Shown here one piece after another: positions 25 to 534 of a stretch of DNA of 876 nucleotides. The notes under the pieces are model-generated. The model saw only the letters and a program-made list of their open reading frames with translations. It was not told the origin of the DNA and made no database searches. The stretch lies in the NCBI RefSeq assembly GCF_003334255.1, contig NZ_QOWU01000184.1; one strand, written 5' to 3'. Made by a program: the position numbers and the translations under genes. Source of the DNA: Escherichia coli (GTDB lineage: Bacteria; Pseudomonadota; Gammaproteobacteria; Enterobacterales; Enterobacteriaceae). Position 1 is the stretch's first letter. Every line of letters begins with the position of its first letter.

Positions 25-534
25 GTGGCTACGCAGACTGAAGTTGCCAGGCATTTAAGTCTGACCGATCGCCAGCTTCGCAGATTGCAGAAATTGCCGG
101 GTGCCCCGATATCGAATAAGCGAGGGCAACTGGATCTGGATGCCTGGCGCGATTTTTACATATCGTATCTGAGAAGAAGTAAAAACGATGTGCCTGATGG
201 CGATAGCGAAGACGACTATGAGGAGAAATTGCTTATTGCCAGATGGGAACTGACAGCAGAACAGGCTGTTACACAGCAGTTAAAAAATGAGGTGTCAAAA
301 GGAAAACTTATTGATACCGGGTTCTGTATTTTTGCCCTCAGCAAGCTGGCAATGGCGTTATCCAGTACGCTTGATTCCATCCCTTTATCCATGCAGCGAC
401 AGTTTCCTGATTTAACACCGCGCCATCTTGACCATCTGAAAACCCTTATTGCGAAGGGGGCAAATCAGTGTGCGCGGGCGGGGGATAAATTACCGGATTT
501 ACTCGATGAATATATCAGAGCAACAACTGAATAA
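25..534 (+). CDS. nu1: Phage terminase small subunit, lambda Nu1-like (DNA-recognition subunit for cos packaging), 169 aa, apparently complete
   Basis: Open frame from GTG at 25 to TAA at 532-534, bounded upstream by an in-frame TGA at 19-21. The N-terminus (TQTEVARHLSLTDRQLRRLQ) resembles the lambda Nu1 helix-turn-helix region as I recall it. The C-terminal half (TGFCIFALSKLAMALSSTLDSIPLSMQRQFPDLTPRHLDHLK ... LPDLLDEYI) closely matches recalled lambda Nu1 (TAFCTFVLSRIAGEIASILDGLPLSVQRRFPELENRHVDFLK ... IPGLLSEYI). A lambda gpA-like gene follows immediately and overlaps it, which is the lambda arrangement. SD-like GAGGTGA lies upstream of the GTG. Confidence 0.93.
   Translation: MATQTEVARHLSLTDRQLRRLQKLPGAPISNKRGQLDLDAWRDFYISYLRRSKNDVPDGDSEDDYEEKLLIARWELTAEQAVTQQLKNEVSKGKLIDTGFCIFALSKLAMALSSTLDSIPLSMQRQFPDLTPRHLDHLKTLIAKGANQCARAGDKLPDLLDEYIRATTE

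Follow-up and report, generated by a model that had tools for sequence, protein, structure and literature searches.

The window, by which we mean the whole stretch of 876 nt analysed here, contains one long open reading frame on the plus strand and a second gene that starts inside its 3' end (Table 1). In records identical to the window the product of the long frame is annotated as a terminase small subunit (TerS), and in near-identical records this Nu1-type gene is followed by the gene for the large subunit (TerL, gpA type), then by W, portal and the remaining lambda-type head operon. The large subunits of homologous loci give Pfam matches to GpA_ATPase and GpA_nuclease. The start of TerL is most likely ATG 506, from which the protein reads MNISEQQLNN (compare MNISNSQVN in lambda) and which is the annotated start in PV340549 and NZ_CP023820. 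This gives a 29-nt overlap with the TerS gene. Directly beyond the TerS stop codon there are two further in-frame ATGs, at 536 and 539, either of which could wrongly be taken for the TerL start.

Prophages in several E. coli genomes, for example in that of strain 7/2 (locus L002), match the window with 100% identity, and the deposited phages PhiR12_1 to PhiR12_5 match it with 99.5%. These five phage records were submitted as complete genomes and name laboratory hosts, and a literature search on these phages found nothing. Since the cos site lies outside the window, it was read from such identical or near-identical records, with nt 1 of the window corresponding to position 3001 of L002.

Table 1. 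Features of the window and of the cos region upstream of it in the identical prophage L002
Feature	Position	Strand	Remarks
cosQ GGGTCCTTTCC	~200 nt upstream of window nt 1 (~30 bp before cohesive end)		L002
Cohesive end GGGCGGCGACCT	171-160 nt upstream of window nt 1		L002; predicted
R3 core TCCGGTT	118-112 nt upstream of window nt 1		L002
I1-like site	~100-88 nt upstream of window nt 1		L002
R2 core AACCGGA	64-58 nt upstream of window nt 1		L002
R1 near-palindrome AAGCCGGACATGACCGGTTT	L002 2966-2985, 35-16 nt upstream of window nt 1		20 bp
cosB-TerS spacer, last 24 nt	1..24	+	Includes Shine-Dalgarno GAGGTGAGGA at 15..24
TerS ORF (Nu1 type)	25..534	+	GTG start, TAA stop 532..534, 169 aa; ORF list
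N-terminal winged helix-turn-helix DNA-binding domain, 'MATQ type'	25..198	+	aa 1-58
Helix 1 of MATQ domain	34..54	+	aa 4-10
Predicted recognition helix of MATQ domain	67..90	+	aa 15-22
Wing hairpin of MATQ domain	109..135	+	~aa 29-37; tip K32-R33-G34
Helix 3 of MATQ domain	136..186	+	aa 38-54
Acidic linker GDSEDDYEEKLLIARW	199..246	+	aa 59-74; contains mosaic joint; blastn
Nu1 core and C-terminal half	241..534	+	aa 73-169; BLASTP, Pfam
TerL gene (gpA type), 5' part	506..876	+	ATG 506, reads MNISEQQLNNMMSAV...; continues past window end

TerS belongs to the lambda-type small subunits, with a family-profile match, a gene overlapping that of gpA and an N-terminal MerR-like winged helix-turn-helix DNA-binding domain. 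The family profile phrog_57 matches it over its full length (residues 1-169, E = 1.7e-55) and also spans the TerS of lambda, phage 21 and N15 over their full length, at the same profile positions. The Pfam model Phage_Nu1 (PF07471, E = 1.4e-18) covers residues 49-150 only, equivalent to positions 62-163 of the 164 in the model, and no NCBIfam model matched TerS. BLASTP against lambda Nu1 aligns only residues 73-164, to Nu1 86-177 with 46% identity, and gives no alignment in the N-terminus. The aligned half is, in lambda TerS, the part responsible for oligomerisation and TerL binding (PMC4669245).

The N-terminal domain, whose residues 1-40 (window 25..144) read MATQTEVARHLSLTDRQLRRLQKLPGAPISNKRGQLDLDA, was examined separately. 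Identity with lambda Nu1 is about 16% over the N-terminal ~50 residues. A PDB sequence search with the TerS protein did not retrieve the lambda DNA-binding domain, and a PDB profile search returned generic helix-turn-helix segments only (sigma region 4, homeodomains, GerE). An hhalign comparison of a 34-member family profile with a profile of the lambda, 21 and N15 domains nevertheless gave 81% probability (E = 1.2e-5), placing TerS residues 4-31 on lambda 5-31. In phrog_57, residue 1 of TerS and of the comparison protein are alike aligned to positions 11-12. The AF2 model of residues 1-58 (pLDDT 82) has helices at 4-10, 15-22 and 38-54 and a hairpin at ~31-36. The fold of the domain was established as that of a MerR-like winged helix, the same as in lambda Nu1. 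The helix-turn-helix outline proposed in the preliminary description for the first ~40 residues is therefore real on the evidence of hhalign, phrog_57 and AF2, and the divergence from lambda, there put at 'many positions', is stronger than claimed, as BLASTP, Pfam and the PDB sequence search are all blind in this region.

An exhaustive search with residues 1-70 recovered 43 representative clusters, in all of which the MATQ domain is N-terminal in proteins of TerS size or shorter, with the exception of P0107 (2465 amino acids, 19 matched stretches), which is a spurious open reading frame over a tandem repeat. Some databases apply the name 'prophage Qin NU1-like' to such proteins; nohA of K-12 Qin proved to be lambda-type and to have lambda R sites, so the name is a sign of similarity and no more.

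Two features of the domain bear on DNA contact. The residue aligned to lambda Glu24 is Lys23 in the window TerS and Ser in phage 21, and the analogous residue in N15 is Val22 (PMC4669245); the DNA-contacting residues are thus not the same as in lambda. The wing of the window TerS reads SNKRGQLDL, which had been placed at 106..138; that interval reads PISNKRGQLDL, and the nine residues occupy 112..138, 6 nt off. The glycine triplet of lambda (RGGGKGNEV) is indeed missing from it. However, N15 likewise has a short wing without the triplet (EKRGRE, against NKRGQ in the window protein and GGGKGN in lambda), the wing in most MATQ-family members is KG-GG, and the lambda and 21 wings are reported to be interchangeable (PMC9026076). 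The missing triplet is therefore a secondary matter and probably does not set specificity.

The cohesive end in L002 lies 171 bp before nt 1 of the window, in keeping with the expectation that cos would be found within ~200 bp upstream. TerS starts at bp 196 from this end, compared with bp 191 in lambda, which falls within the ~80-200 bp downstream of a 12-nt cohesive end that is typical of lambda-type TerS, and cosQ is located upstream. Both cosQ and cosN of L002 agree with those of lambda and phage 21. The first 45 bp of cos in L002 are identical to lambda, and differences begin from about bp 48. The same point is a boundary in comparison with phage 21: by blastn, the cosQ-cosN stretch is 98% identical to 21 over 215 bp, to ~bp 48, where similarity breaks and returns only at window 588 inside gpA.

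Beyond this boundary, cosB contains four copies of CATGTCCGGTT (at most one mismatch) within ~106 bp of the 6.9-kb locus, where 0.12 are expected and none of 200 shuffles reached four. R3 is a forward copy at bp 50-60, and R2 an inverted copy at bp 108-118. The R1 zone contains an inverted copy at bp 138-148 and a forward copy at bp 145-155, each with one mismatch and overlapping at CATG, and together these two half-sites make up the near-palindrome AAGCCGGACATGACCGGTTT. A dimeric domain could bind this near-palindrome symmetrically. The R-like core consensus in cos sites of the L002 type is (C/G)AT(G/T)TCCGGTT. Between R3 and R2, at bp ~72-85, there is an A/T-rich element with the position and orientation of lambda I1. 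In a Klebsiella locus the IHF consensus WATCAANNNNTTR is matched exactly at bp 73-85, the sole match in 3.5 kb, and the I1-like element of Salmonella has one mismatch to that consensus. With three R sites, an inverted R2 and an IHF site between R3 and R2, this is a complex cosB; Salmonella relatives lack R1. An in-gene accessory site comparable to rR2 of N15 was sought as CATGTCCGGTT with at most two mismatches and is absent from the window. The R elements and IHF site for which an upstream search had been recommended are accordingly present in L002 (R3, an IHF-like site, inverted R2 and R1), and the R elements are not identical to those of lambda, with C, G and T in place of T, C and C at bp 56, 58 and 59.

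These sites are conserved among relatives. A footprint alignment was made of nine diverged cos regions, which came from E. coli, Klebsiella, Salmonella, Enterobacter, Citrobacter and IMG/VR contigs. Invariance is confined to islands at cosQ, the cosN flank, the R3 and R2 cores and I1; elsewhere, the cohesive-end sequence included, the regions vary. Inverted AACCGGA follows TCCGGTT at exactly 54 bp in eight of the nine regions, and L017, the ninth, departs from this R2 core by one base (AAACGGA). A count over 80 IMG/VR loci and enteric loci used the cosN flank as its anchor, the lambda flank motif beginning at bp 23. Of the 61 non-redundant MATQ-domain loci, 58 have TCCGGTT at bp 54-57, counted from the cohesive end; the loci are related to one another and so do not represent 58 independent events. 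Anchoring on the flank replaced a de novo scan for 9-mer repeats upstream, which was noisy for GC-rich loci. Among the 58 loci are GC-rich contigs and Aeromonas phage phiARM81ld. Of the three exceptions, two have an altered recognition helix and repeats of another kind, such as GTGTCGTGTC in L079. Cohesive ends vary widely in L010, L012, L014, L017, L018 and L020, where the first 12 bp read GGGCGACGCGCT, GGGGCGCTAACC, GGGCGGCGTCCG, GGTAGGCATACG and others, while cosQ GGGTCCTTTC and the right flank CGC..TTATGAAAA are fixed in the same loci.

Distant and often GC-rich members (IMG/VR loci L022-L096) have a simple cosB like that of N15, in which TerS starts at bp ~78 and a tandem TTCCGGTTCCGG(TT), at positions -28 to -10 before the TerS ATG, comes directly after the cosN flank and lies ~10 nt before the start codon. 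The record of phiARM81ld (L097) begins at a lambda-like end, GGGCGTTAGACC, and has TTTCCGGTTCCGGTT at bp 54-68 and a TerS start at bp 79. The distance of the R motif is constant from cosN and not from the start codon, which argues for a role in cos over a role in translation. Klebsiella and the distant members have (A/G/C)(T/C)TTCCGGTT, without ATG, and the family-wide core is TCCGGTT rather than CATGTC. The MATQ domain family thus spans simple and complex cosB, resembling the N15/Monarch pair, in which one domain type also occurs with a simple (single R3 position) and a complex (R3-I1-R2-R1) cosB.

Nearly the same C-terminal half of TerS is found with three types of N-terminal domain, and the R sites upstream change with the domain. 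The MATQ type of the window protein is accompanied by (C/G)AT(G/T)TCCGGTT, the N15-type domain of P0056, P0059 and others by GGTTGTTGT, and the lambda/21-like domain of P0063 and P0087 by CAGATCC(G/T)TTCT. The motif GGTTGTTGT is absent upstream of the window TerS and present in L015, which combines an N15-type domain with the same C-terminal half. By blastn, DNA similarity begins at window 238 in prophages with the N15-type domain and at window 214 in those with the lambda/21-like domain, which puts the joint near codon 72, within the acidic linker; in some E. coli prophages the match begins only at window 247. For phages 21, N15 and lambda, similarity sets in only at window 588-591, inside gpA. 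With joints at window ~214..247 and at ~588, what is exchanged is cosB together with either the DNA-binding domain or the complete nu1 gene. Judged by these alignments, a cassette of cosB and the first ~72 TerS codons appears to be swapped as one unit between otherwise similar prophages. In the Salmonella locus L016 (P0063), the lambda/21-like domain MKVNKKELADFFGADVRTITAWQ occurs with four repeats of the form CAGATCC(G/T)TTCT or AGAAAGGATCT, and this domain-repeat pair may be yet another specificity variant.

Experiments have documented three lambda-like packaging specificities: lambda, 21 and N15/Monarch (PMC4669245). Feiss et al. (PMC4669245) reported that bp 56 and 59 are critical for recognition, and bp 58 also for lambda, and argued that cos sites should be aligned by equal distance from bp 1. 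These positions are T, C and C (bp 56, 58 and 59) in lambda cos, G, C and G in phage 21 cos, and C, G and T in L002 cos, which represents the class of the window.

The window system shares with lambda the order cosQ-cosN-cosB-TerS-TerL and the overlap of the two genes (lambda nu1 at 191-736, A from 711), a forward R3, an IHF-like site at bp ~72-85 and an inverted R2 ~54-56 bp from R3, a TerS start ~190-196 bp from the cohesive end, identity over bp 1-45, the winged-helix fold and the 46% identical C-terminal half. It is an ordinary lambda-type system of standard architecture, and a specialist would expect further classes of this kind. The lambda specificity class is characterised by the R sequence CGTTTCC(G/T)TTCT and Glu24, whereas the window class combines its own bases at the three positions with Lys23; the R core is CGTTTCCGTTCT in lambda and ATGTCCGGTT in the window class, and the single R1 of lambda contrasts with the near-palindromic R1 here. 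Phage 21 has the same cosB layout, TerL DNA ~83% identical to that of the window and R sites sharing CATGTC..GG, in addition to the near-identical cosQ-cosN. Its class is defined by C(A/G)TGTCGG at bp 53-60 and the helix RTIERWQS, while in L002 the site is CATGTCCGG at bp 50-58, which has one bp more and is displaced by ~3 bp relative to cosN; the domain sequence of 21 is lambda-like, and the cosB-plus-nu1 cassette (window -123 to 588) is unrelated to that of 21 at the DNA level. N15 shares with the window protein the short wing mentioned above and, through P0056 and P0059, domains of its type on the same C-terminal half. The N15/Monarch class is characterised by R3 GAGGTTGTTGTT at bp 48-59 together with the N15 helix, in place of ATGTCCGGTT in the window class, and the recognition helix SVQAFDKW of N15 differs from DRQLRRLQ in the window TerS. 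Finally, the Rpp proteins of Gram-negative PICIs (RppC, PDB 6HLK and 6HN7) are without the TerL-binding C-terminus and form heterodimers with the helper TerS (PMC6739421, PMC9026076). The window protein, by contrast, is a complete TerS that has the entire Nu1 core and the C-terminus, and its own TerL, W and portal come after it in a complete head operon.

Taken together, the locus is likely to encode a lambda-type TerS with a diverged DNA-binding domain and its own cosB, which should select its own cos and so constitute a further packaging-specificity class. Since its recognition helix and R elements depart from the lambda, 21 and N15 versions at the specificity positions, the system should largely ignore the other cos sites. 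We infer this distinct specificity from the covariation of domain and R sites. The suggestion of a different cosB specificity in the preliminary description finds support in that covariation, though too much weight had been put on the wing. By analogy with lambda, TerS dimers would dock their recognition helices (residues 15-24) on R3 and the inverted R2, an IHF bend at the I1-like site would bring R3 and R2 together, and the docked TerS would anchor TerL so that cosN is nicked at the right place. The domain and cosB would then act as a portable specificity cassette. As a counterpoint, cross-recognition is possible, since the E. coli R element CATGTCCGG resembles CATGTCGG of 21 and the family core resembles GTTTCCGTTCT of lambda; lambda DNA is packaged by the N15 terminase despite the diverged system (PMC4669245).

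Other explanations of the locus were weighed against this reading. The specificity of phage 21 might be shared, fully or asymmetrically, with the R elements representing 21-like sites with one additional bp and the two terminases packaging each other's DNA, in which case the class would have no specificity of its own. The R sites of 21, CGTGTCGG and CATGTCGG, are close to CATGTCCGG, the 98% identity in cosQ-cosN fits such sharing, and N15 and lambda provide a precedent for asymmetry. The TerS domain of 21, however, is lambda-like (MKVNKKRLAEIF...RTIERWQSQG), and its similarity to the window domain escapes detection by BLASTP and Pfam; with positions counted equally from cosN, phage 21 has G at both bp 56 and bp 59, where the window class has C and T, and the CATGTC that suggests 21 is not the family-wide core, with ATG missing in Klebsiella and the distant members. 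Shared specificity is accordingly considered unlikely. It is very unlikely that the domain is an unrelated winged-helix module, such as one from an excisionase or a MerR-like regulator, joined to a Nu1 core and similar to lambda by convergence at the level of the fold. By hhalign the domain matches the lambda/21/N15 profile without a shift in register, phrog_57 places the first residue of both proteins at the same positions, and the 43 representatives, P0107 apart, carry the domain only at the N-terminus of TerS-sized or shorter proteins. The R core TTTCCGGTT, moreover, resembles TTTCCGTT of lambda, at the same bp 54-60 and in the same R3-I1-R2 layout.

Decay of the gene in a defective prophage, with divergence due to relaxed constraint, would accommodate the frameshifted or truncated copies P0039 and P0042 (126-129 amino acids) in several E. 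coli genomes, the O157:H7 copies that are annotated as hypothetical proteins only, and H31 (NZ_CP106929.1 118825-118991), which retains only window 1..167, with 97% identity, beside a tail-fibre C-terminal gene. The open reading frame of the window is nevertheless intact and is followed by a full operon of gpA, W and portal, the domain residues and R cores are kept across genera, the five 99.5%-identical phage records are complete and list laboratory hosts, and the cosB-plus-domain cassette is widespread in E. coli, so that this explanation is regarded as extremely unlikely. Of the degraded copies, P0039 consists of TerS residues 1-102 and a tail close to the alternative-frame ORF 287..415 of the window (window ~325 onwards), and H31 is what remains after a deletion, similar to the nohA-stfQ junction of K-12 Qin.

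The cosB-plus-domain cassette (at least 80% cover) is present in 1146 of 5426 complete E. coli genomes (~21%), O157:H7 included. It is about as frequent as the 21-class cassette (1160 of 5426); the lambda-class cassette is found in 3955 of 5426, a count that includes defective remnants of the Qin and DLP12 type. In the open-access literature, no paper was found with the R motif in a phage context and none testing the MATQ class. A supplementary figure of Asadulghani et al. (2009) aligns the cos and Nu1 of Sp4 and Sp14 of O157 with lambda, and no specificity analysis accompanies that figure. The MATQ domain with its cosB probably marks a packaging specificity that is common in E. coli prophages though uncharacterised. 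A more far-reaching view, which we hold tentatively and at somewhat less than even chances, is that the MATQ domain and its TCCGGTT R sites would form a fourth lambda-like specificity, mutually insulated from lambda, 21 and N15 and older and wider than the lambda class, since it extends to GC-rich contigs and an Aeromonas phage, and that its TerS may escape hijacking by the Rpp proteins of PICIs.

Which co-resident prophages, satellites and cos plasmids can be mobilised by a terminase depends on its packaging specificity, and several lambda-like prophages are often co-resident in E. coli genomes. The members with simple and complex cosB offer a natural series for testing how complex cosB arises or collapses, including by a model of unequal crossover. 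If the class is indeed a fourth one, its rules would be TCCGGTT at bp 54-60, the same core in inverted orientation after another 54 bp and a portable cassette extending to about TerS codon 72, and they would aid in predicting cross-packaging among the prophages of O157 and other pathogens and in designing orthogonal cos vectors.
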